From sequence record MK373778.1: a stretch of DNA of 64,000 nt; one strand, given 5' to 3'. How positions within the stretch are numbered: position 1 is the stretch's first letter; each line of letters starts with the position of its first letter. The notes under the pieces were generated by a model. It was not told where the DNA came from. It ran no database searches and was given only the letters and a program-made list of their open reading frames with translations. The translations under genes and the position numbers were made by a program. This stretch comes from Escherichia phage vB_EcoM_WFbE185. This document shows, one piece after another, positions 6,815-63,909 of this stretch.

Positions 6815-7369
6815 CTATAGTATCATAGACCATAGTTGTTGTACATCATTTAGCAAAATAAAATCAACTTGTTCTGCCAATGAACGTCTGAACATTAATT
6901 GACAACTTCCGAGGATGAAATCAGGTGCTTCATAGACCGCGATGTAGTATCCTTTAGCTTTCAAAAGTTCAACATCCACCTGGTCATCAAACCATGCATA
7001 AACCGCGTCAACACTTTCAAATCCAAAATAGAACCCTTTAGCCCAATCTTCACTCAATTCAAATGTGTGCTCAATTCTATAGTATCTTAAGATATTTTGT
7101 TCAAGGAGTTTGTCTTCATTTACTGTAGGACGATTAGGGACATTATAGTTGTCGCCGTGATGGTAGAAGTTACCTGAGAGTATTCCATGCTTATCAAGGA
7201 ACTCCCATGTTTCTTCAGAGTTGTCGGTGCCCGACCAACCGTATGGCGAACGAGGTTCTTTATTCCAAGAGGTTTCCCAAATTCTGACGGCTTTACCGTC
7301 TTCGATAGCAATTCCTGGTAATGATTCACGTTGAGTACAAAAACTACGTTCTACGCGGTAAACTAACAT
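6815..7369 (-). CDS. hypothetical protein (184 aa)
   Basis: ORF with upstream promoter at 7396-7424. Confidence 0.5.
   Translation of the reverse strand: MLVYRVERSFCTQRESLPGIAIEDGKAVRIWETSWNKEPRSPYGWSGTDNSEETWEFLDKHGILSGNFYHHGDNYNVPNRPTVNEDKLLEQNILRYYRIEHTFELSEDWAKGFYFGFESVDAVYAWFDDQVDVELLKAKGYYIAVYEAPDFILGSCQLMFRRSLAEQVDFILLNDVQQLWSMIL
6817..6845 (-). promoter_or_regulatory. early-type sigma70 promoter (-35 TGTACA, -10 TACTAT with TGn)
   Basis: Member of a repeated intergenic consensus TGTTAtTATAGACCTATCAAC with GTTTAC/TGTACA 17-18 bp upstream. Confidence 0.5.
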
Positions 7370-7395
7370 ATTATTCTCCTCTGGTTGATATGGTT

Positions 7396-7424
7396 ATAAT
7401 ATCAAAACCAGAGGAGAAGTAAAC
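7396..7424 (-). promoter_or_regulatory. early-type promoter (-35 GTTTAC, 17 bp, -10 TATTAT)
   Basis: GTTTAC-N17-TATTAT on minus strand; flanking inverted repeat CTGGTT...AACCAG. Confidence 0.55.
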
Positions 7425-8384: not shown

Positions 8385-8879
8385 TTAATTTAGAATATTA
8401 ACTACTGCACTACGTGGAACAACGCTAAAATCACCGGCATGAACAACGTTCAGAAGTTCAACCCCATCTTCAATCCACTGATCAGTTACCCATCCACTCA
8501 CTGGACCTGCGAACGGACGACGAATTGAAACAGCTTTACACAACAAATCAGTAGGCTCAATAGGCTTAATCAGAGTACCGTACATACAAGCGATATCCAT
8601 ATCAGTACAGATGTCTTTAACGGGTTCTACTTCTTCAACCAACAGTTCAAAGTCGGTGCTTGGAAGGGCGGTAGTAGAAATTGTACCGTATGAATTTTTA
8701 ATTTCTAAGAATAACCAAGGGCCTTCAGCTTGTTTGATGAAGTTAATAATAGTGAAACTATTACCTTGAGTGGCACCTAAAATTTCACAAAACTTTTCAT
8801 AAGCTCGCACTGAAGCACCGTACCAGTTGATTTGTTTTTCGTCTTTCAGGATGTAAGTAGCCGTAGTATTGATATTCAT
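8385..8879 (-). CDS. paralog family protein C (164 aa)
   Basis: C-terminal WVTDQWIEDGVELLNVVHAGDFSVV matches the paralog motif. Confidence 0.5.
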   Translation of the reverse strand: MNINTTATYILKDEKQINWYGASVRAYEKFCEILGATQGNSFTIINFIKQAEGPWLFLEIKNSYGTISTTALPSTDFELLVEEVEPVKDICTDMDIACMYGTLIKPIEPTDLLCKAVSIRRPFAGPVSGWVTDQWIEDGVELLNVVHAGDFSVVPRSAVVNILN

Positions 8880-8910
8880 AATGTTTTTCCTGTTTGGTTA
8901 AGATAGAAAG

Positions 8911-8940
8911 ATTATACTCCAACCATCCTTGGTTGTAAAC
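8911..8940 (-). promoter_or_regulatory. early promoter (-35 GTTTAC, -10 TATAAT) with 6-bp stem hairpin CAACCA-AGGA-TGGTTG in the spacer
   Basis: A 46-bp element identical to the one at 51135-51180. Confidence 0.55.
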
Positions 8941-14935: not shown

Positions 14936-14964
14936 AACAAAAAAAGGAATCCCGAAGGATTCCT
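14936..14964 (-). terminator. intrinsic terminator after soc (AGGAAUCC-UUCG-GGAUUCCU + U7)
   Basis: Perfect 8-bp stem with UUCG loop followed by UUUUUUUGUUU on minus-strand RNA. Confidence 0.7.
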
Positions 14965-14972
14965 TAAATTAT

Positions 14973-18466: not shown

Positions 18467-18752
18467 CTGTGATTTCGGTTACGATATCTTTGTTATCGAA
18501 ATTAGGGTCACAATACAAAACGTAGTTGTACTGCATGATACCACCAGACTTAAGTTGTTCAACAACTTTATTAACCATATTAGGACGGTCTCGTTTAGTG
18601 ATGTTCATGATATCAGAGAAGATTTGTTGTTCAACATCTTCTTGATTTGCAGTCATTGACCACTCACAGAGGTCTTTATCATAACCTGCCGTAACTGGAG
18701 CCGGTGCACATGATACTGCAAGTAAGATTGCTGCCAATGATAACTTTTTCAT
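18459..18752 (-). CDS. sp: periplasmic Spackle-like protein with signal peptide
   Basis: 97 aa; signal peptide MKKLSLAAILLAVSCAPAP; GYDKDLCEWSMTA and YNYVLYCD match my recollection of T4 Sp; same size. Confidence 0.55.
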   Translation of the reverse strand: MKKLSLAAILLAVSCAPAPVTAGYDKDLCEWSMTANQEDVEQQIFSDIMNITKRDRPNMVNKVVEQLKSGGIMQYNYVLYCDPNFDNKDIVTEITGE

Positions 18753-18781
18753 TTTAACTCCTTAGTTGATTTGATAGGACT

Positions 18782-18811
18782 ACTATACTATAGTCCATCT
18801 ATAATGTAAAC
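18782..18811 (-). promoter_or_regulatory. early-type promoter (-35 GTTTAC, -10 TATAGT)
   Basis: Consensus family with GGACTA/TAGTCC inverted repeat; upstream of sp with AAGGAG SD. Confidence 0.5.
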
Positions 18812-18815
18812 AAGT

Positions 18816-19064
18816 TTATTCTTTTTCGCGAATAATAATTACTTGTTGAGGCTGCTGAGCAGATTTCTTTTCGGCAACGATAGACCAAATTAAAGTTCCA
18901 ATCCAACCAATCATCGTCCAGTTAAAGAGTAAAGATACAAAGAAGATTGCTGTTGTGCTTTTTGTGCCACGAATAAGTGCGATTACCCAAGGCAACATGT
19001 AAATGATGATTGAACCAATACCTGCGATTAAAACTGCTACTGAACTAGCTACGAATAATTCCAT
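18816..19064 (-). CDS. small inner-membrane protein (82 aa, two hydrophobic segments)
   Basis: Hydrophobic composition; possibly superinfection-exclusion type, unproven. Confidence 0.5.
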   Translation of the reverse strand: MELFVASSVAVLIAGIGSIIIYMLPWVIALIRGTKSTTAIFFVSLLFNWTMIGWIGTLIWSIVAEKKSAQQPQQVIIIREKE

Positions 19065-19092
19065 GTTAATTTCCTCTTGATTTGTTATGTTT

Positions 19093-19122
19093 ATAATATC
19101 TTGTTTTAACTTTGGTGTAAAC
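19093..19122 (-). promoter_or_regulatory. early-type promoter (-35 GTTTAC, -10 TATTAT)
   Basis: GTTTAC-N18-TATTAT upstream of the membrane protein gene. Confidence 0.45.
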
Positions 19123-19125
19123 CAA

Positions 19126-19494
19126 TTAATTAAATTTGTTTAAACGTTCAATACACTGGACGTAGTTATTCGCGATTTGTTTCTGGGTAGGCTCTTTACC
19201 GGTTGTTTCAACATAGCGAATGAATGCGATTTCAGTAGCCTGTAAGCAATGTTCTTTAACGCGTTGTTCTTTTGACAATGCTACAGTATCAGAGTCACGA
19301 TAACGTTGAGCATGGGCATCAGCTTGAATCATTCGATTACCTACAGTAACCGGGTCTTCCACTTCAACTTTAGGTTGGTCGTACTGTTTAACGTTCGGAT
19401 TGTAAATCAATTGGCCAACGTTATTAGGGATAAAGCCGTGGGCACCACATCCGGTTAATCCAAATACCATTGCTAAAGCGATTAATTTTTTCAT
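19126..19494 (-). CDS. lipoprotein (122 aa)
   Basis: Signal peptide with lipobox LTGC. Confidence 0.5.
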   Translation of the reverse strand: MKKLIALAMVFGLTGCGAHGFIPNNVGQLIYNPNVKQYDQPKVEVEDPVTVGNRMIQADAHAQRYRDSDTVALSKEQRVKEHCLQATEIAFIRYVETTGKEPTQKQIANNYVQCIERLNKFN

Positions 19495-19522
19495 TTCAAT
19501 TTCCTCTGTAGTTGATAGAAAG

Positions 19523-19552
19523 ATAGTAACACAGTATGTGGTGCTTGTAAAC
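19523..19552 (-). promoter_or_regulatory. early-type promoter (-35 GTTTAC, -10 TACTAT)
   Basis: Consensus family element in the intergenic region. Confidence 0.5.
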
Positions 19553-19554
19553 AG

Positions 19555-19791
19555 CTATTTTAAACTTTTGCGAAATTTGCGTTTTTCTTGACGAATCTGT
19601 CGTTTAGTCGGACGTACGGCAAATTTAACGAAGTCCACTTTGCCGTGTGGAAACTTTTCAGATGCTTCACAGTCCATCATTAGTTCCCATCCTTCCAGAA
19701 TAAGAGCTTTCCATTGTGTAGTTGATGCAAATTCGTATGTTGATGGTTTAAACACAGTTGAATACATATTATCCTCTGAAATCAGCTTCAA
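19555..19791 (-). CDS. small basic protein with C-terminal RPTKRQIR motif (78 aa)
   Basis: C-terminus VRPTKRQIRQEKRKFRK shared with ORFs at 47627-47806 and 48231-48401. Confidence 0.45.
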   Translation of the reverse strand: MKLISEDNMYSTVFKPSTYEFASTTQWKALILEGWELMMDCEASEKFPHGKVDFVKFAVRPTKRQIRQEKRKFRKSLK

Positions 19792-19963
19792 AAACTTTCA
19801 CATCGTTGACAAAGGCTTTTACCAACGCTTTATTTACTTCGGCAAATTGAGAAGTGGCCCACTGGATTTGGTCTTTATCGGACACATCTAGTGTCATTTC
19901 TTTGGTAAACATATTACCATTTTCAAACCAACCAATAAAAACTACTTTAGCAAAATCACCCAT
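19769..19963 (-). CDS. dmd: Dmd (antitoxin-like inhibitor of host RnlA/LsoA)
   Basis: 64 aa; VVF.GWF.N..MFTKE...QWAT.Q.AEVNKALVKAF closely matches T4 Dmd. Confidence 0.7.
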   Translation of the reverse strand: MGDFAKVVFIGWFENGNMFTKEMTLDVSDKDQIQWATSQFAEVNKALVKAFVNDVKVFEADFRG

Positions 19964-20281
19964 TTATATTTCCTCACAGAACGCCCATTCAGCGTGATAA
20001 ACTGTAGCACCTTTAGTATCATTCATTTGAACTACGTCTACCGGAGAAATTACTCGATAGAGACGTGGTTCACCTCCATAAGAGCGTGCAGCTCGTCCTG
20101 CATAAATCTTTGCTAAACCGATATCTTCAGTAAAGAATACACGATCCAAGTTTTTCTTACGTCCAGTTTCAGACAGAACTCCTGTTTCCTCAGGAGGACA
20201 AAGCATGTTTTCGATGTTAGCTGAACTACTTGAACCGTGATAAAAAATCTTAAATTCTGCTTTACAATCGATGGTTTTCAT
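19964..20281 (-). CDS. hypothetical protein (105 aa)
   Basis: ORF directly downstream of a hairpin promoter. Confidence 0.5.
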   Translation of the reverse strand: MKTIDCKAEFKIFYHGSSSSANIENMLCPPEETGVLSETGRKKNLDRVFFTEDIGLAKIYAGRAARSYGGEPRLYRVISPVDVVQMNDTKGATVYHAEWAFCEEI

Positions 20282-20307
20282 TTTGTTCTCCAGTAGTTGA
20301 TAGGTCT

Positions 20308-20336
20308 ATAATAACACAACTACTGGAGAAGTAAAC
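20308..20336 (-). promoter_or_regulatory. early promoter (-35 GTTTAC, 17 bp, TGT-TATTAT) inside a 14-bp perfect inverted repeat
   Basis: Arms 20286-20299 and 20317-20330 (TTCTCCAGTAGTTG / CAACTACTGGAGAA); the 3' arm contains the SD GGAG of the downstream gene. Confidence 0.6.
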
Positions 20337-20711
20337 TTAAAAACGTAATTTAGATATATCTGCGTTGATTTCGTTTTGGTTCGCGTCATATGCAATTAAA
20401 CGAACCGCTTTAGATGGGTCATTCAATGCATAGAAATGATGGAACATTGCTCGAACGATATCGCCATTTACGAGTTCTACCTGGATAGGAGAACCTTTTT
20501 CGAGTTGGAAATGTTCATAAGCTTTGATGGTTCGCAGATAATCAAGTTTTTGATTTCCAGCTCCAACTATTTGTACGATACGTTTGTCCATGTTTTCCAT
20601 ACGAGATACAATAGTTTTAGGAGCAAGAATAACGTAGGTTGCCAGCGGAGAAACTACTTCAACAGTTGTGTTTTCGGTGATTGCAGTAAAAATTGCTTGA
20701 GACATATTCAT
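20337..20711 (-). CDS. hypothetical protein (124 aa)
   Basis: ORF; no recognised motif. Confidence 0.5.
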   Translation of the reverse strand: MNMSQAIFTAITENTTVEVVSPLATYVILAPKTIVSRMENMDKRIVQIVGAGNQKLDYLRTIKAYEHFQLEKGSPIQVELVNGDIVRAMFHHFYALNDPSKAVRLIAYDANQNEINADISKLRF

Positions 20712-20740
20712 AATGTTTTCCTCTTGGTTGGTGTAAGTAC

Positions 20741-20770
20741 ATCATATCATGCCTAGAGGAAGATGTAAAC
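20741..20770 (-). promoter_or_regulatory. early-type promoter (-35 GTTTAC, 18 bp, TGa-TATGAT)
   Basis: Downstream of the gene 41 hairpin, upstream of the 124-aa gene. Confidence 0.5.
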
Positions 20771-20777
20771 CCCGAAA

Positions 20778-20798
20778 GGAGACCGAAGTCTCCTTTTT
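20778..20798. terminator. GC-rich hairpin (GGAGAC-N4-GUCUCC) at the 3' end of gene 41; T-tract on the plus-strand side
   Basis: Minus-strand RNA has a UUCG loop but is followed only by UUUCGGGG; plus-strand reading is followed by TTTTTATT; orientation ambiguous. Confidence 0.4.
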
Positions 20799-20799
20799 A

Positions 20800-22242
20800 T
20801 TAAAATTTTAACTCATTGGCTAAGCTATCTAGGTCAGCACGTGTTGCTTTGGCTTTACCTACGCGTTCCGTACGATTCACCTCTGCCTGACGCATCTGAG
20901 CACCTGCGTTTTCATTTACTGTGTTAGGTGTGTTCATGCCTTCTTGCTCAATCTCAACCCATTTCTGATTGCCTTTACGTACACCCATCAGGAATTTATT
21001 CCACTTATTCTTATCGCCGTATCGTGATTTGATTTGTTTGATAAGTTGTTGTTCAGCTTGTGCAAGTTCTTCGGTTTCAATTACAGCCAACATGAAATCT
21101 GCCGTTGCTGGTAAACCTGCTGATTCTGCGATATCACTCATGTTCATGTCTGAAGCATCCCATGCTGCACGTCCTACTTGAGCTGCAGTCCATAGAACTG
21201 TTTCAGATTCTACTGCTAATGCACGAAGTTCTTCTGCGATAGCTTTAACTAATGTGTAGCTATTTTCAGTGTAAACTCTGATACGACAAGACCCACAAAT
21301 ACCTAAGTAATCAACCATGATTACAGATGGCACAAAGTTCTTCTTAAGTTTTAACTCATTAAGCAATGCACGGAATGTATTAGCATTAGCTTCGCCAGTA
21401 GGATACTGTTTAACTACTAAACGTCCTAATGTTGTTTTTGAACGCCATTTTTCCATCTTGGCTTTATATTCAGCATAAGATACGTTACCATCATCGATAT
21501 CATCGAGTGATACGTCAAGCATGTTTGCATCTATACGCTTAGCACAAACTTCTTCAGCCATTTCCATGGAAATATAAAGAACATTATGACCTGTTTGAAG
21601 ATAATCTGCAGCAAGTGAACAAAGGCCTAAAGATTTACCGACGTTAACACCAGCCATTAAAACGTTTAGTGTACCTGTTTCTGCGCCGCCTTTGGTGATT
21701 TTATTCAAAATGTTTAATTTGAACGGGACCTTACGTGCTTTATTTAGATAAGAAAGCCAGCGTGCTTCGTAGTCTTCCATCCAGTCATGTCCAACATAAC
21801 TATCGAACGAAATTGAAAGTGCTTGACGCATAATATCAGGAATAGCTCCTACGTCAGGCATTTTCTTGTTACGTTGTTCTGGAGGTAGTTCAGCATTAGA
21901 CTGAATCTCAATGATTTTGGATGTAGCATTATACATCGCTTTTTGCTGGACATATTTCTCAGTTTCTTTAACCAACCATTCGTGGTCTTCAGGAGTATCA
22001 GCCAATTTTTCAATTAGGTCTGAAGTTCCTTTATATTCGGCTTCAGTTAAAGAACTGTTATCTAAAGCCACCTTTAATGCATTGATAGATGGCATTGCAT
22101 TATATTCGTTAACGTGGCTCTTTATAATTTTAAAGACATTTTTTGCCGGTCCACGCTCAAAATACTCAGAATCCATATAAGGCCAGACCTTAGAAAAATA
22201 AGCCTGGTCATATACGAGATGAGACAAAATAATTTCTACCAC
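20800..22242 (-). CDS. 41: replicative DNA helicase gp41 (DnaB-like)
   Basis: 480 aa; N-terminus MVEIILSHLVYDQAYFSKVWPYMDSEYF matches T4 gp41; Walker A GVNVGKS. Confidence 0.9.
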   Translation of the reverse strand: MVEIILSHLVYDQAYFSKVWPYMDSEYFERGPAKNVFKIIKSHVNEYNAMPSINALKVALDNSSLTEAEYKGTSDLIEKLADTPEDHEWLVKETEKYVQQKAMYNATSKIIEIQSNAELPPEQRNKKMPDVGAIPDIMRQALSISFDSYVGHDWMEDYEARWLSYLNKARKVPFKLNILNKITKGGAETGTLNVLMAGVNVGKSLGLCSLAADYLQTGHNVLYISMEMAEEVCAKRIDANMLDVSLDDIDDGNVSYAEYKAKMEKWRSKTTLGRLVVKQYPTGEANANTFRALLNELKLKKNFVPSVIMVDYLGICGSCRIRVYTENSYTLVKAIAEELRALAVESETVLWTAAQVGRAAWDASDMNMSDIAESAGLPATADFMLAVIETEELAQAEQQLIKQIKSRYGDKNKWNKFLMGVRKGNQKWVEIEQEGMNTPNTVNENAGAQMRQAEVNRTERVGKAKATRADLDSLANELKF

Positions 22243-42611: not shown

Positions 42612-42655
42612 TCATTTTAAGACGATAGGAAGATAATAACATGTCTTCCTATCGT
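42612..42655 (-). promoter_or_regulatory. early-type promoter (-35 TGTACA, -10 TATTAT) flanked by 12-bp perfect inverted repeat ACGATAGGAAGA / TCTTCCTATCGT
   Basis: Inverted repeat arms sit in the spacer and just downstream of -10; coordinates approximate. Confidence 0.45.
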
Positions 42656-43553: not shown

Positions 43554-43732
43554 GGCTTAATTTCCTTCGCAATTGAACAGAAGATACCACGGTCACAAAG
43601 CATTTCACCAATTTCTGGATATTTGATTGAACGGTACCAAACATCCAGGCTTGAAACTCTGGTTATCTGTACGGCATTACCATTGACAGAATAGTACTGG
43701 TCAACCTTAATTTCTTTATCTTCAATTGTCAT
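43550..43732 (-). CDS. hypothetical protein (start moved to internal Met)
   Basis: The track start is TTG and the longer ORF contains promoter 43761-43790; internal ATG has GAGG SD. Confidence 0.4.
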   Translation of the reverse strand: MTIEDKEIKVDQYYSVNGNAVQITRVSSLDVWYRSIKYPEIGEMLCDRGIFCSIAKEIKP

Positions 43733-43760
43733 TTTATTTTCCTCTATAGTAGATGGTTTA

Positions 43761-43790
43761 ATCTTAACACATCTATTGAGGATGTAAACT
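43761..43790 (-). promoter_or_regulatory. early-type promoter (-35 GTTTAC, TGt-TAAGAT)
   Basis: Consensus family; imperfect inverted repeat around it; coordinates approximate. Confidence 0.4.
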
Positions 43791-51122: not shown

Positions 51123-51150
51123 AATATTTTCCTCTCGTTAAGATAGAAAG

Positions 51151-51180
51151 ATTATACTCCAACCATCCTTGGTTGTAAAC
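51151..51180 (-). promoter_or_regulatory. early promoter with spacer hairpin (copy of the 8911-8940 element)
   Basis: 46-bp identity with 8895-8940: gttaagatagaaagattatactccaaccatccttggttgtaaactg. Confidence 0.55.
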
Positions 51181-51184
51181 TGAT

Positions 51185-52144
51185 TTATGATTTTAACGCA
51201 TTCATTGCGTTAAAAAGTTTAGAATACTGCAACTGGAGATTCGTTACAACACTTTGAGCATCACGAAGCTTAGCTTGTGCTTTGTCAAGTTCAACAGACA
51301 GTTGGTCCATAGTGGCCTTGATTTGATTGTAATGGTAATCTTCGGCCGGAAGAAGGTCATTATAAACATTTAGTTTTACTGCAGACAGTTTGCACACATT
51401 TGGCAAACCTTTAAACATTGATTTAGCCGAAGTAGAATAAGCACTTAGGACTTCGGCTTGTTCAATTGGGGTCCCAGTAAGCGATGATTCAAACAATGCA
51501 TTTTCCTTTTTAAGATTTTGATAGTATTCAGAGTCTTTGTGCCACCATGGCGCAGGAACCTTTTTACCAATAGATACACGTGCCTGGATAGCGATATGGC
51601 CTTTATTCTTGATAGGGTTGATAATATTAAGCTCGCGAGAATAAATTGCTTTAATCTGGTGGATATTATCACCTAACACTTCCAACGCTTGGTGAAATAC
51701 ACGAGCAACGTTATCATTCTTAGGTTTATACGTAAGAGTGAACTCGTTCTCACTGATAACCATGATTTCTAACTTATCGTAAGTATATTTCAAATGTTTC
51801 ATGTTAATTGCTTGAGGACGAATACGAGAAGCAATGGCCATCAGATTGTTAAGGTTATTTCTGAACTGTTTAGCAAAATATTGTCCATAACCGCCAATGC
51901 AAAAATTACGAAGTTTCTGTTTGGCCAATAAACGGCTGAACTCGCCATTTTTAATGAACTCTTTAACGGGTGTGTTAGTAACGCATTCAAATTGAGTAAA
52001 CTTACGAGAATTAATCCCATAATACGAACAGATTTCCTCAATCTCTTCAGGAGTCTTTACAGGCATACGGATAGGATTAGGTCCTGGAGTATATGCGTTC
52101 GAGGTAAATTCTTTGATAAGTTCTCTACGTGTAATAAAAGCCAT
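51185..52144 (-). CDS. hypothetical protein (319 aa) with C-terminal coiled coil
   Basis: C-terminal MDQLSVELDKAQAKLRDAQSVVTNLQLQY. Confidence 0.5.
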   Translation of the reverse strand: MAFITRRELIKEFTSNAYTPGPNPIRMPVKTPEEIEEICSYYGINSRKFTQFECVTNTPVKEFIKNGEFSRLLAKQKLRNFCIGGYGQYFAKQFRNNLNNLMAIASRIRPQAINMKHLKYTYDKLEIMVISENEFTLTYKPKNDNVARVFHQALEVLGDNIHQIKAIYSRELNIINPIKNKGHIAIQARVSIGKKVPAPWWHKDSEYYQNLKKENALFESSLTGTPIEQAEVLSAYSTSAKSMFKGLPNVCKLSAVKLNVYNDLLPAEDYHYNQIKATMDQLSVELDKAQAKLRDAQSVVTNLQLQYSKLFNAMNALKS

Positions 52145-53257: not shown

Positions 53258-53785
53258 TTATGCGTGAACCGTCTTTAAACGTTCTTCAAATTTCCGAAGA
53301 GTACTAATACGTTCTGCTTTCTGTTTTGTATAGTTTGCAATACGTTCTGAAGTGAGAGCGTATCGTTCGTTTACTGTTTCTTTCATGAAGTCAGGGATTT
53401 CACGAGAAGCTTTAATTTCATCAAACTTATCGAGTACTGCCTGGTCTTCAGCAATTAAATTTTCGTACATCTCGATATCTTTCTTGATGAAGTCGATATC
53501 TTCCTGGGTTACTTTGGATAAACGAGATGCCTTATCCTTTTTGTACTGCTCGTTAGTTTCACGAGACCAGAATAATGTACGTTTTTTGTTAGTGTTTTTG
53601 TAGACTTCCACAATTCCAACTGAATCGATGATAACAATCCAATTCCAGCGAGATTTGAAAATCTGACCTCCGTCCACGGTAATCTCGTTACCATAAGCAA
53701 TGTCATTAAAGAACTTACTTTGTGCTTCAGATTTAAATTTACCGTCGTTATAATTTACCAGGTTGAAAATATCTTTAGCGTTCAT
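53258..53785 (-). CDS. hypothetical protein (175 aa), coiled-coil rich
   Basis: ORF downstream of promoter 53813-53841. Confidence 0.5.
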   Translation of the reverse strand: MNAKDIFNLVNYNDGKFKSEAQSKFFNDIAYGNEITVDGGQIFKSRWNWIVIIDSVGIVEVYKNTNKKRTLFWSRETNEQYKKDKASRLSKVTQEDIDFIKKDIEMYENLIAEDQAVLDKFDEIKASREIPDFMKETVNERYALTSERIANYTKQKAERISTLRKFEERLKTVHA

Positions 53786-53812
53786 GTTTTACCTCCAGTA
53801 GTTGATAGGTCT

Positions 53813-53841
53813 ATAATAACATAACCATAGACCTTGTAAAC
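53813..53841 (-). promoter_or_regulatory. early-type promoter (-35 GTTTAC, 17 bp, TGT-TATTAT)
   Basis: Same consensus block as 20308-20336; GGTCTAT/ATAGACC inverted repeat. Confidence 0.55.
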
Positions 53842-57648: not shown

Positions 57649-57828
57649 TTATTCACCAATTAAAGTTTCAACAAAATTCACCAAATCATTCAGACAAGCA
57701 TCAACCTGATTTTCATAAAAGTCTTCGTTATCATTTACTGCATGATAAGCTACATCATTCAAATCTGAATCGGCTTCACGTAAGTTACGGATAAGTTCCA
57801 TCAATTTATTAGCTTGTTCACGGGTCAT
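57649..57828 (-). CDS. small acidic protein (59 aa), not in ORF track
   Basis: MTREQANKLMELIRNLREADSDLNDVAYHAV...; ATGA coupling with the upstream 36-aa ORF. Confidence 0.35.
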   Translation of the reverse strand: MTREQANKLMELIRNLREADSDLNDVAYHAVNDNEDFYENQVDACLNDLVNFVETLIGE

Positions 57829-57935
57829 TTTACCATACTCGTTTCAATAAGATTCACTATGCCGTTTACCATGTTATAAGTAAACATCGGATAATTGTAT
57901 TGTACTACAACATAAGCGATAAGCAAAAGTTTCAT
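57825..57935 (-). CDS. small hydrophobic peptide (36 aa), not in ORF track
   Basis: MKLLLIAYVVVQYNYPMF...; GGAG SD; downstream of promoter 57964-57993. Confidence 0.3.
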   Translation of the reverse strand: MKLLLIAYVVVQYNYPMFTYNMVNGIVNLIETSMVK

Positions 57936-57963
57936 TTTGTTCTCCGTTCGTTTTGGTAGGACT

Positions 57964-57993
57964 ACTATAACATAATCCTACCAAGATGTAAAC
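57964..57993 (-). promoter_or_regulatory. early-type promoter (-35 GTTTAC, -10 TATAGT) within 9-bp inverted repeat TTGGTAGGA/TCCTACCAA
   Basis: Consensus family; the 3' arm overlaps the SD region. Confidence 0.5.
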
Positions 57994-58226: not shown

Positions 58227-58386
58227 ACATTTGCAATTCGGTGTGGGTGTCAGCCATCTTTTTCATTGCCTTATTGATATCAATATCGCCATCTTCGCAC
58301 CCATGGGCATTCTCCCAATCAGATACGGCATTAGCGTACTCTTCAATCAAAAACATTAACTTAGAAATTTTTTCTTTACGTGACAT
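58207..58386 (-). CDS. hypothetical small protein (start moved to Met14)
   Basis: ATG with GAGGAG SD downstream of promoter 58414-58442. Confidence 0.4.
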   Translation of the reverse strand: MSRKEKISKLMFLIEEYANAVSDWENAHGCEDGDIDINKAMKKMADTHTELQMYVNEIM

Positions 58387-58413
58387 AACGTTCTCCTCTA
58401 GTAAGTAAAGACT

Positions 58414-58442
58414 ACTATAACACAACCTGCGGAGAAGTAAAC
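58414..58442 (-). promoter_or_regulatory. early-type promoter (-35 GTTTAC, 17 bp, -10 TATAGT)
   Basis: Consensus family, sequence GTTTACTTCTCCGCAGG...TATAGT. Confidence 0.5.
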
Positions 58443-61369: not shown

Positions 61370-61828
61370 CTAGATTTTAATCACTGCTTTAGAAGCTTTT
61401 CCTGGTAGTCGTTTACTGTTAATAATAGCCATTCTACATTGAAGAGTCTTCATTTTAAATGCTGGATTTTCGCGACAAACTGTAAGTCCTAACCAAAGAT
61501 TTCCGTCAGTTATTTCTAAACGGCCCGGGCGATATTCGACACCTTCGTCAAAATCTTCATCAACATCTGGACGTGCCGGCATTGATAAAAATTCTGCAAC
61601 TTCTTTAACATGATTTTTTACTTTATGAAATAATTCAAAAACGTAATTCTCATCTATTTCTCTCTGGATGGCACGATCTAAGAGATGTTGAGAATACTTG
61701 ATATGAAAGCCTGGTAGTCCAAGAGACTTTGCAGCATCTTTTATACTGGCATTTATTTTGCGGAACTCCGTTTCAAAGATTCGACGGAGTTTATTACGGC
61801 GGATAAAAACGTCTGAATTGATAGTCAT
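61370..61828 (-). CDS. regB: RegB endoribonuclease
   Basis: MTINSDVFIRRNKLRR...FHIKYSQHLLDRAIQREIDENYVFELFHKVK matches my recollection of T4 RegB; start at ATG Met9 with GAGGAG SD. Confidence 0.7.
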   Translation of the reverse strand: MTINSDVFIRRNKLRRIFETEFRKINASIKDAAKSLGLPGFHIKYSQHLLDRAIQREIDENYVFELFHKVKNHVKEVAEFLSMPARPDVDEDFDEGVEYRPGRLEITDGNLWLGLTVCRENPAFKMKTLQCRMAIINSKRLPGKASKAVIKI

Positions 61829-61856
61829 TTTGATTTCTCCTCTAGTTGACAAGTCT

Positions 61857-61885
61857 ATAGTAACACAACTAGAGGAGAAGTAAAC
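61857..61885 (-). promoter_or_regulatory. early promoter (-35 GTTTAC, 17 bp, TGT-TACTAT) inside a 14-bp perfect inverted repeat
   Basis: Arms 61835-61848 and 61866-61879 (TTCTCCTCTAGTTG / CAACTAGAGGAGAA); the 3' arm carries the regB SD. Confidence 0.6.
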
Positions 61886-63798: not shown

Positions 63799-63879
63799 AT
63801 TATTTCTCTTAAGGTTTGGGCCATTCCGTGGCACATGAATTGTCCATTTCTGTATTTACCCCTCCAAGTAATTATGAAT

Positions 63880-63909
63880 ATACTATCACAATTCTAGGAG
63901 AAAGTAAAC
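63880..63909 (-). promoter_or_regulatory. early-type promoter (-35 GTTTAC, 18 bp, -10 TAGTAT)
   Basis: GTTTACTTTCTCC...TAGTAT. Confidence 0.4.

Follow-up and report, generated by a model that had tools for sequence, protein, structure and literature searches.

The stretch of DNA analyzed here (the window) is 64,000 nucleotides (nt) long and belongs to Escherichia phage vB_EcoM_WFbE185 (MK373778.1). Over positions 19000-22000 the identity to Escherichia phages moskry and RB69 (both of Mosigvirus, Tevenvirinae) is 97%, and the gene order of the window is that of the first ~64 kb of RB69, from rIIA to about vs.8. Nearly all genes lie on the minus strand, and for this reason all features of the elements described below are read on that strand. 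The elements are early promoter cassettes in which a perfect inverted repeat encloses the -10 region, the 3' arm of the repeat containing the Shine-Dalgarno (SD) sequence of the next gene. Strong versions are found upstream of three genes. The homolog of the RB69 open reading frame (ORF) RB69ORF040c (19964-20281, minus strand) encodes a 105-aa protein of phrog_2110, with no assigned function, and has dmd directly downstream. regB (61370-61828, minus strand) encodes the GGAG-specific endoribonuclease, a 152-aa protein 99% identical to RB69 RegB and an endoribonuclease according to PHROG. The third gene is motB.2, starting with the ATG at 7367-7369.

Promoters embedded in inverted repeats

The order of the components on the minus strand is the same in the three strong elements: the -35 hexamer GTTTAC, a 5' arm beginning with TTCTCC, an extended -10 TGT-TAYTAT in the loop, a 3' arm ending in GGAGAA, 4-6 nt, and the ATG. 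The promoter has the form GTTTAC-N17-TAYTAT, the 5' arm filling its spacer and the 3' arm being itself the SD. The ORF040c cassette reads GTTTAC-TTCTCCAGTAGTTG-TGTTATTATAGACCTAT-CAACTACTGGAGAA-CAAA-ATG from 20336 to 20279. GTTTAC (20331-20336) adjoins the TAA stop codon (20337-20339) of the ORF041c homolog; the 5' arm TTCTCCAGTAGTTG, complementary to the SD (anti-SD), lies at 20317-20330 in the promoter spacer; the loop (20300-20316) carries TGT-TATTAT, with the hexamer at 20308-20313 and the predicted transcription start (+1) at the A in 20301; the 3' arm CAACTACTGGAGAA (20286-20299) includes the GGAG at 20288-20291. The regB cassette (61835-61885) has the -35 at 61880-61885, the 5' arm TTCTCCTCTAGTTG at 61866-61879, the -10 TACTAT at 61857-61862, the predicted +1 at 61850, and the 3' arm CAACTAGAGGAGAA at 61835-61848, with GGAG at 61837-61840. 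In the motB.2 cassette (7374-7424) the -35 is at 7419-7424, the 5' arm TTCTCCTCTGGTT at 7406-7418, the -10 TATTAT at 7396-7401, the predicted +1 at 7389, and the 3' arm AACCAGAGGAGAA at 7374-7386, with GGAG at 7376-7379.

The +1 positions were predicted from the usual 7-nt distance after the -10, and all three (20301, 61850 and 7389) fall in the loop, 2 nt ahead of the 3' arm. A promoter scan called the embedded promoter as sigma-70-type, with an extended -10 TGT. The stop codon of the upstream gene abuts the -35 at 20336, is 4 nt away at 61885 and 7424, and so the whole intergenic space of 55-60 nt is made up of promoter, hairpin and SD. The 5' arm begins 6-10 nt after the upstream stop codon (10 nt at both regB and motB.2).

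A scan of the window for inverted repeats returned two perfect repeats of 14 bp with 17-nt loops (20286-20299/20317-20330 and 61835-61848/61866-61879) and one of 13 bp with a 19-nt loop (7374-7386/7406-7418). The first two are exactly the 14-bp repeats around a -10 that had been reported at 20286-20330 and 61835-61879 by the initial annotation, a reading of the sequence made earlier; its placing of the motB.2 site (given as 7381-7424) among less perfect copies is not borne out, the 13-bp stem being perfect and equal to the other two. The two 14-bp stems differ from each other at two positions, AG versus TC, and both changes are compensated in the opposite arm.

Perfect repeats of at least 12 bp with loops of 3-30 nt occur four times in the window, the mean in 30 dinucleotide shuffles being 0.17. 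According to a pattern scan, about 20 exact GTTTAC promoters (17-20 cassettes) reside directly upstream of minus-strand genes in the 64 kb. The best helix between spacer and SD was scored for the 17 that are followed by an SD and an ORF of at least 30 aa: three promoters scored 13-14, two 7.5, and one 6. When only the 16-18 nt promoter spacers were shuffled, 0.001 promoters were expected to reach a score of 10, and three did; 0.20 were expected to reach 7, and 5/17 did. A chance origin of the repeats is ruled out by the shuffles of the window and of the spacers alike.

Long RNAs that begin at the upstream stop codon and extend into the ORF are predicted to fold with energies of -25.0, -23.2 and -25.3 kcal/mol (z -4.9, -3.9 and -5.1) in the three strong elements. 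RNAs beginning at the predicted +1 are essentially unstructured, with predicted energies of 0, -2.5 and -0.8 kcal/mol. The predicted probability that the SD core is unpaired is 0.00 in the long RNAs versus 0.47-0.75 in the short ones. No U-tract follows the stems, whose tails are CAAAATG, ATCAAAATG and TAATATG; the G+C content of the stems is only ~43%, and the loops measure 17-19 nt. A terminator scan of the window made no call at the elements, and called UUCG-tetraloop terminators elsewhere, as at 14944-14965. By these features the elements do not resemble intrinsic terminators, an identity rejected for the lack of both a U-tract and a terminator call. Comparison with Rfam gave zero matches at gathering score across the whole window.

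Stems covering the SD are found 5' of regB in Mosigvirus, Tequatrovirus, Gelderlandvirus (STML-198, Melville), Citrobacter CF1/Salmonella KM16 and Jiaodavirus (KPV15). Stem sequences differ over the five lineages, predicted energies range from -14.5 to -22.4 kcal/mol, and the SD is always inside the 3' arm. The regB gene of Aeromonas phage 44RR2.8t has no stem, and features instead a GC hairpin plus T-run terminator just upstream. T4 has the architecture at four genes, regB, motB.2, denV and nrdC.8: the regB stem TTTTCCTCTTGACTG/CAGTTAAGAGGAGAA is of 15 bp including two G.U pairs, that of motB.2 has 17 pairs, three of which G.U, and that of denV 10 bp. The GenBank record of T4 has no annotated promoter or transcription start site features. 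The SD of motB.2 is covered in the window, T4 and JS98 (Dhakavirus; stem TTCTCCTCATG/CATGAGGAGAA), that of gene 55.6 in the window and in JS98, where the stem spans 14 positions with one mismatch. A scan of IMG/VR for GTTTACTTCTCC...GGAGAA retrieved at least seven unrelated, fully complementary inner stems (AGTAGTTG, TCTAGTTG, TCTGGTT, TCTTTTCT, TGTAGATG, GGTTTGACAT and TCATG), each with a -10 in the loop, and stems of 10-14 bp were still recovered when the 5' arm was left unconstrained.

Alignment of the regB leaders by MAFFT and RNAalifold misaligned the arms and yielded 7 outer pairs only, and an arm-anchored alignment was used instead. In such an alignment of 16 elements, chosen for having helices, 85.3% of the cells are paired versus 69.7% in shuffles, 0/500 of which reach the observed value; slid controls gave 44-52%. 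Two-sided changes occur at 9/14 pairs. In a separate count, helices were defined by Watson-Crick matches only, and the other positions inside them were then scored: 16 are G.U, 5 A.C, and 15 other combinations, the flanking positions featuring 23 G.U and 21 A.C. In stretches not fetched by any stem pattern, G.U outnumbers A.C by 7 to 1. The asymmetry of G.U over A.C favours a structure in the sense-strand RNA; neither a cruciform nor a protein operator would yield it. The anatomy described in the initial annotation is correct and clearly selected, compensatory changes having preserved the stem at orthologous genes of several genera. Judged from these sequence comparisons, the SD-covering element is real, selected at the RNA level, and conserved across T-even genera.

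Weaker cassettes and hairpins leaving the SD free

Along with the motB.2 site, which fits fully, three sites had been listed as similar in the initial annotation. That at 43745-43790 fits imperfectly (TCCTC...GAGGA, with an internal bulge), whereas those at 42612-42655 and 57951-57993 bracket a -10 but stop short of the SD, and would not mask it. The 43745-43790 repeat is part of the gene 55.6 promoter (43732-43789, minus strand), where TCCTC..ATAGATG pairs with CATCTAC..GAGGA; the predicted probability of an unpaired SD is 0.00 in the long RNA versus 0.67 in the short one. Two weaker SD-pairing versions reside at promoters missing from that list, both on the minus strand. At the ORF041c promoter (20711-20770) TTCCTCT may pair weakly with AGAGGAA across a long loop, and a UUCG-type hairpin lies just upstream; at the mobD.2a promoter (58386-58442) only the 6-bp remnant TTCTCC/GGAGAA is left, and an intrinsic terminator lies just upstream.

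Hairpins enclosing the -10 with the SD outside form a second class, with sites on the minus strand of the window as follows. The 12-position stem TTGGTAGGATTA/TAGTCCTACCAA at 57951-57993, with one G.U, brackets the -10 TATAGT, and the SD, 10 nt past the stem, remains free. At 42622-42655 a 12-bp perfect repeat surrounds a degenerate promoter (ATGTAC-18-TATTAT), and the SD is again outside the stem. At the nrdC.8 promoter (53785-53841) the stem AGGTCTAT/ATAGACCT brackets the -10. Further sites are 18752-18811 in the window, and 20553-20612 (dmd), 57932-57990 (mobD.2) and 65718-65799 (ipII) in T4. The class is enriched in both genomes, with 4 sites versus 0.13 expected in the window and 5 versus 0.37 in T4, and its hairpins are likewise biased for G.U over A.C.

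The gene downstream of the 57951-57993 hairpin is a 36-aa ORF (57825-57935, minus strand) with its own GTTTAC promoter and SD. Between tk.1 and RB69ORF107c, RB69 has an unannotated stretch with 89% identity to this ORF, which is probably a small gene missed in annotation. A GTTTAC promoter at 63845-63909 (minus strand), whose spacer contains TTTCTCC, is followed by an ORF of just 16 codons (ATGGACAATTCATGTGCC...), a situation similar to that upstream of T4 ipIII; the site may encode a leader peptide or be what is left of a cassette.

Function of the SD-covering hairpins

T4-type phages carry dozens of strong early promoters arranged head-to-tail and few terminators, with the consequence that most early genes receive transcripts from two sources, their own promoter and read-through. 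We propose, with a probability of roughly 0.6, that the elements are early cassettes of the published PeSL type, in which an anti-SD arm encoded by the promoter spacer silences the downstream cistron on read-through RNA. RNA coming from the upstream gene would carry both arms, and the 13-14 bp hairpin would bury the GGAG of the next cistron, be it regB, motB.2 or the ORF040c homolog, and more weakly 55.6; on such RNA the cistron would be translationally silent, and its GGAG hidden from the RegB nuclease. RNA from the embedded promoter would start ~2 nt ahead of the 3' arm, lack the 5' arm, and offer an open ribosome site. The gene would be expressed only in the burst from its own immediate-early promoter. 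Most likely, the hairpin serves to insulate both translation and RegB cleavage against read-through transcripts.

The surroundings of the promoters are in keeping with this proposal. Strong stems are found where the upstream ORF leads straight into the promoter. Promoters with an intrinsic terminator no more than 80 nt upstream mostly have either no stem or a decayed one, as observed for mrh.2 and mobD.2a in the window, ORF040c in JS98 and regB in 44RR. The ORF040c stem is reduced to 6 bp in JS98, versus 14 bp in the window, where ORF041c abuts the promoter. The mrh.2 promoter, which has no hairpin, is preceded at 14944-14965 by a perfect hairpin with a UUCG tetraloop (AAGGAATCCTTCGGGATTCCTT) and T-runs on either strand, which looks like a bidirectional intrinsic terminator; UUCG-type terminators occupy equivalent places in T4 and JS98.

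The second line concerns RegB. The site recognized by RegB with S1 is a single-stranded GGAGRAYARAA, protected from cleavage by secondary structure (PMC1702504; PMC3014915). The 3' arm plus tail of the ORF040c element, GGAGAACAAAA, matches this consensus at 11/11 positions, that of motB.2 at 10/11 and that of regB at 8/11, and of the two predicted RNAs only the short one leaves the site single-stranded. RegB cleaves in vivo at the SDs of three T4 genes, regB, nrdC.8 and motB.2, the last of these having a GGAU site (PMC1702504; PMC3014915). As RegB needs a single strand, an RNA species with an open SD exists at these genes, which agrees with the expectation for promoter-proximal RNA. Read-through RNA, with the site closed, would be neither translated nor cut by RegB.

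Several observations weigh against silencing of read-through RNA as the role of the hairpin. Hairpins that bracket the -10 and leave the SD free are about as many as those masking it, and SD masking is therefore not the sole role of such hairpins. At nrdC.8 the two classes swap, the SD being masked in T4 and free in the window; some more general hairpin function must therefore exist. The ORF040c stem of RB69 itself has a mismatch, and the rows from which covariation was scored had been picked for having helices. The association of terminators with missing stems is a trend only: among 60 promoters from five lineages, 1/10 with an upstream terminator have an embedded hairpin versus 18/50 of those without (Fisher p = 0.15, n=60). 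We infer, moreover, where transcription starts, that read-through RNA spans these junctions and in what amount, and how large the effect on translation is. Lastly, in RB49 a PeSL stem-loop lowered expression of a transcriptional lacZ fusion, a result interpreted as termination (PMC2839356). Masking is the best-supported explanation for the SD-covering subclass and does not extend to the SD-free hairpins, and the mechanism put forward in the initial annotation, in which translation is coupled to promoter choice, is partly supported.

The RB49 result bears on a different explanation, by which the hairpin would be the terminator or attenuator half of a PeSL and the ~50-bp cassette mainly a recombination linker for ORF shuffling, inclusion of the SD being incidental. 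The stem-loop structures of RB49 PeSL211/210 cut lacZ expression as much as rrnB T1 (PMC2839356), and PeSL-PeSL recombination produced mini-circles (PMC2839356; PMC4122927). In the window, identical segments of 46 nt (motB.1/nrdC.3), 29 nt (20336/53841) and 23 nt (61885/7424) are shared by cassettes, and look like the product of sequence exchange between them. ORF040c and ORF041c, each with a cassette, are both found between gene 41 and dmd in the window and in RB69; T4 has no extra ORFs there, and JS98 (L175, 18866-18947, compared with 20282-20800 of the window) has ORF040c alone, with a terminator before it, a distribution consistent with cassette-wise gain or loss. The hairpins without SD contact also suit this explanation. 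Termination is hard to reconcile, however, with ~43% G+C stems lacking a U-tract and left uncalled by a scan that called UUCG-type terminators elsewhere, with anti-SD pairing far above the spacer-shuffle expectation, and with the SD being within the 3' arm in all five lineages having different regB stems. A recombination role is compatible with masking rather than in competition with it, and on balance we hold the terminator and linker explanation to be unlikely.

The 46-nt cassette CAGTTTACAACCAAGGATGGTTGGAGTATAATCTTTCTATCTTAAC is common to the minus-strand promoters of motB.1 (8895-8940) and nrdC.3 (51135-51180), which are 42 kb apart. The ORF starting at 8879 (8385-8879, minus strand; 164 aa) matches RB69 motB.1 first and RB69ORF012c after it, the latter in other frames or segments; two RB69 genes would therefore be fused in the window, unless RB69 has a frameshift.

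The hairpin might alternatively serve the upstream message, as a 3' stem-loop against 3'-to-5' exonucleases or as a processing boundary, overlap with the SD being a by-product of intergenic spaces of only 55-60 nt. The location of the hairpins, which directly follow the stop codon of the upstream gene, the excess of G.U over A.C in both classes and their interchange at nrdC.8 would all be accounted for. Neither the frequent start of the 5' arm with TTCTCC, the exact complement of GGAGAA, nor the decay of stems behind upstream terminators would, and we regard such a role as improbable.

Translational coupling, in which ribosomes ending the upstream ORF would melt the hairpin and the downstream gene would be translated only along with the upstream one, draws on the upstream stop codons being 6-10 nt before the 5' arm. 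A ribosome with a stop codon in the A site covers roughly 9 nt further. At most ~3 bp would thus be opened, that is 0-3 of the 13-14 pairs, and at regB and motB.2 the arm begins 10 nt past the stop, which makes coupling very unlikely. Least credible is a DNA-level element, either a palindrome bound as an operator by some dimeric regulator of the early promoters or a cruciform modulating the promoter: a strong promoter has its -10 at the centre of the repeat, and the mechanism of early-promoter shut-off in T4 has been described as not completely understood (PMC3014915), but arm sequences differ completely while complementarity is kept and only SD and anti-SD are constant, an operator would conserve sequence, and tolerance of G.U and not of A.C is unexpected for DNA, so that operator and cruciform alike were rejected on covariation and G.U bias. 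Loops of 17-19 nt, too, disfavour cruciform extrusion.

The proposed silencing of read-through RNA can be extended, tentatively and with considerably less confidence, to a two-state switch of T-even phages, in which the origin of a transcript would set both its translation and its RegB sensitivity. Immediate-early RNAs of promoter-proximal origin, with their site open, would be translated without delay and afterwards destroyed by RegB at the exposed GGAG; read-through RNAs would be closed, the cistron being silent and the long delayed-early message spared the 5'-to-3' decay triggered by RegB. The device would limit the expression of regB itself in at least five genera, as a hard-wired generator of a nuclease pulse, and intrinsic terminators and anti-SD stems would be alternative, interchangeable insulators of early cassettes. 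If the spacer-encoded arm does silence read-through copies, as proposed above, the short immediate-early pulse of single genes, notably RegB, would be explained without terminator or repressor, the choice of RegB targets would be tied to transcript origin, and PeSL stem-loops would gain a second role beside termination and recombination. The cassette would also be a compact, portable part of ~55 bp, promoter plus insulator, for synthetic operons.

Relation to known systems

PeSLs are intergenic modules of ~50-70 bp between an upstream stop codon and an ATG, which combine an early promoter of the sigma-70 type with a stem-loop, an SD and the start codon; they are repeated in early regions, beside lineage-specific small ORFs, and copies have near-identical segments. 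The elements in the window are similar in all these features. A promoter directed at the downstream ORF (GTTTAC-17-TATTAT/TACTAT) has its -10 enclosed by a stem of 13-14 bp, overlap with the -10 being among the published positions of PeSL stem-loops, a stop codon 0-4 nt ahead of the -35 and an ATG 4-6 nt past the 3' arm, and the module is repeated, with copies alike; the shared segments and lineage-specific ORFs fit the idea of PeSL shuffling. The initial annotation had rightly regarded the element as a recurring module, and had missed its identity with the published PeSL cassettes. PeSL stem-loops have been read as terminators or attenuators, the SD being drawn as a separate 3' part, and their stems have a G-tract/C-tract in RB49 and phi1, and lie immediately upstream of the promoter in T4 and PST (PMC2839356; PMC4122927). 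Here, in contrast, the promoter spacer serves as the 5' arm and the SD itself as the 3' arm, and the U-tract is missing. A 10-bp perfect repeat at 51191-51215 (TTTTAACGCA ttcat TGCGTTAAAA), just upstream of the nrdC.3 -35, has the same position as the T4/PST PeSL stem-loops of Comeau et al. RB69-type phages were outside the PeSL analyses, and RB69 is unmentioned in Arbiol et al. 2010 (PMC2839356; Comeau et al. 2014, PMC4122927). The RB69 genome paper reports 57 predicted early promoters and does not contain the words hairpin, stem-loop or inverted repeat (PMC1524935), and a review of T4-related genomes does not mention PeSLs.

In the T4 genes e, soc, 49 and I-TevI, a helix in a long RNA covers the SD or the AUG, and an internal promoter yields a shorter RNA, which is devoid of the 5' strand of the helix and is translated; masking lowers lysozyme synthesis from gene e 100-fold (PMC3014915). 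The elements in the window resemble these genes in that the SD is paired in the predicted long RNA, a pairing supported by covariation; the +1, as predicted, would fall between the helix strands. The T4 promoters, however, are late ones (TATAAATA), and delay the expression of late or harmful genes. Those found here are immediate-early and sigma-70-type, and the logic would be reversed, expression being limited to the earliest burst. Unlike the T4 device, moreover, the element is found at many genes, and its conservation extends across genera. The initial annotation had pictured a recurring version of a coupling described for a few T4 genes; both the recurrence and the T4 precedent stand, yet the T4 cases are all late-promoter ones.

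The sigma-54 anti-SD insulators of Levy et al. (bioRxiv 10.1101/086108) are alike in that a CT-rich promoter motif pairs with the SD and silences read-through translation. They are made up of 3-5 nt located at most 25 bp from the SD in bacterial sigma-54 promoters, whereas the stems described here are of 13-14 bp, arise from the spacer of a phage sigma-70-type promoter, and have the transcription start between the arms. Intrinsic terminators, like the elements, form a stable hairpin in the intergenic space where a cistron ends, and differ in that the elements have no U-tract, modest G+C, loops of 17-19 nt and a -10 in the loop. As in known RegB/S1 sites, GGAG is followed by an A-rich run in the 3' arms, and regB, known to cut its own SD, is among the genes concerned; known sites, however, are defined as single-stranded, and those of the elements are paired in the predicted long RNA. 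None of the papers searched connects RegB sites with a complementary arm embedded in the promoter, and no paper on spacer-encoded anti-SD arms in T-even early promoters was found in a search that left out the older print literature on T4. The elements are a conserved, little-described variant of two known phage devices, the PeSL cassette and the masking of a ribosome binding site relieved by an internal promoter.

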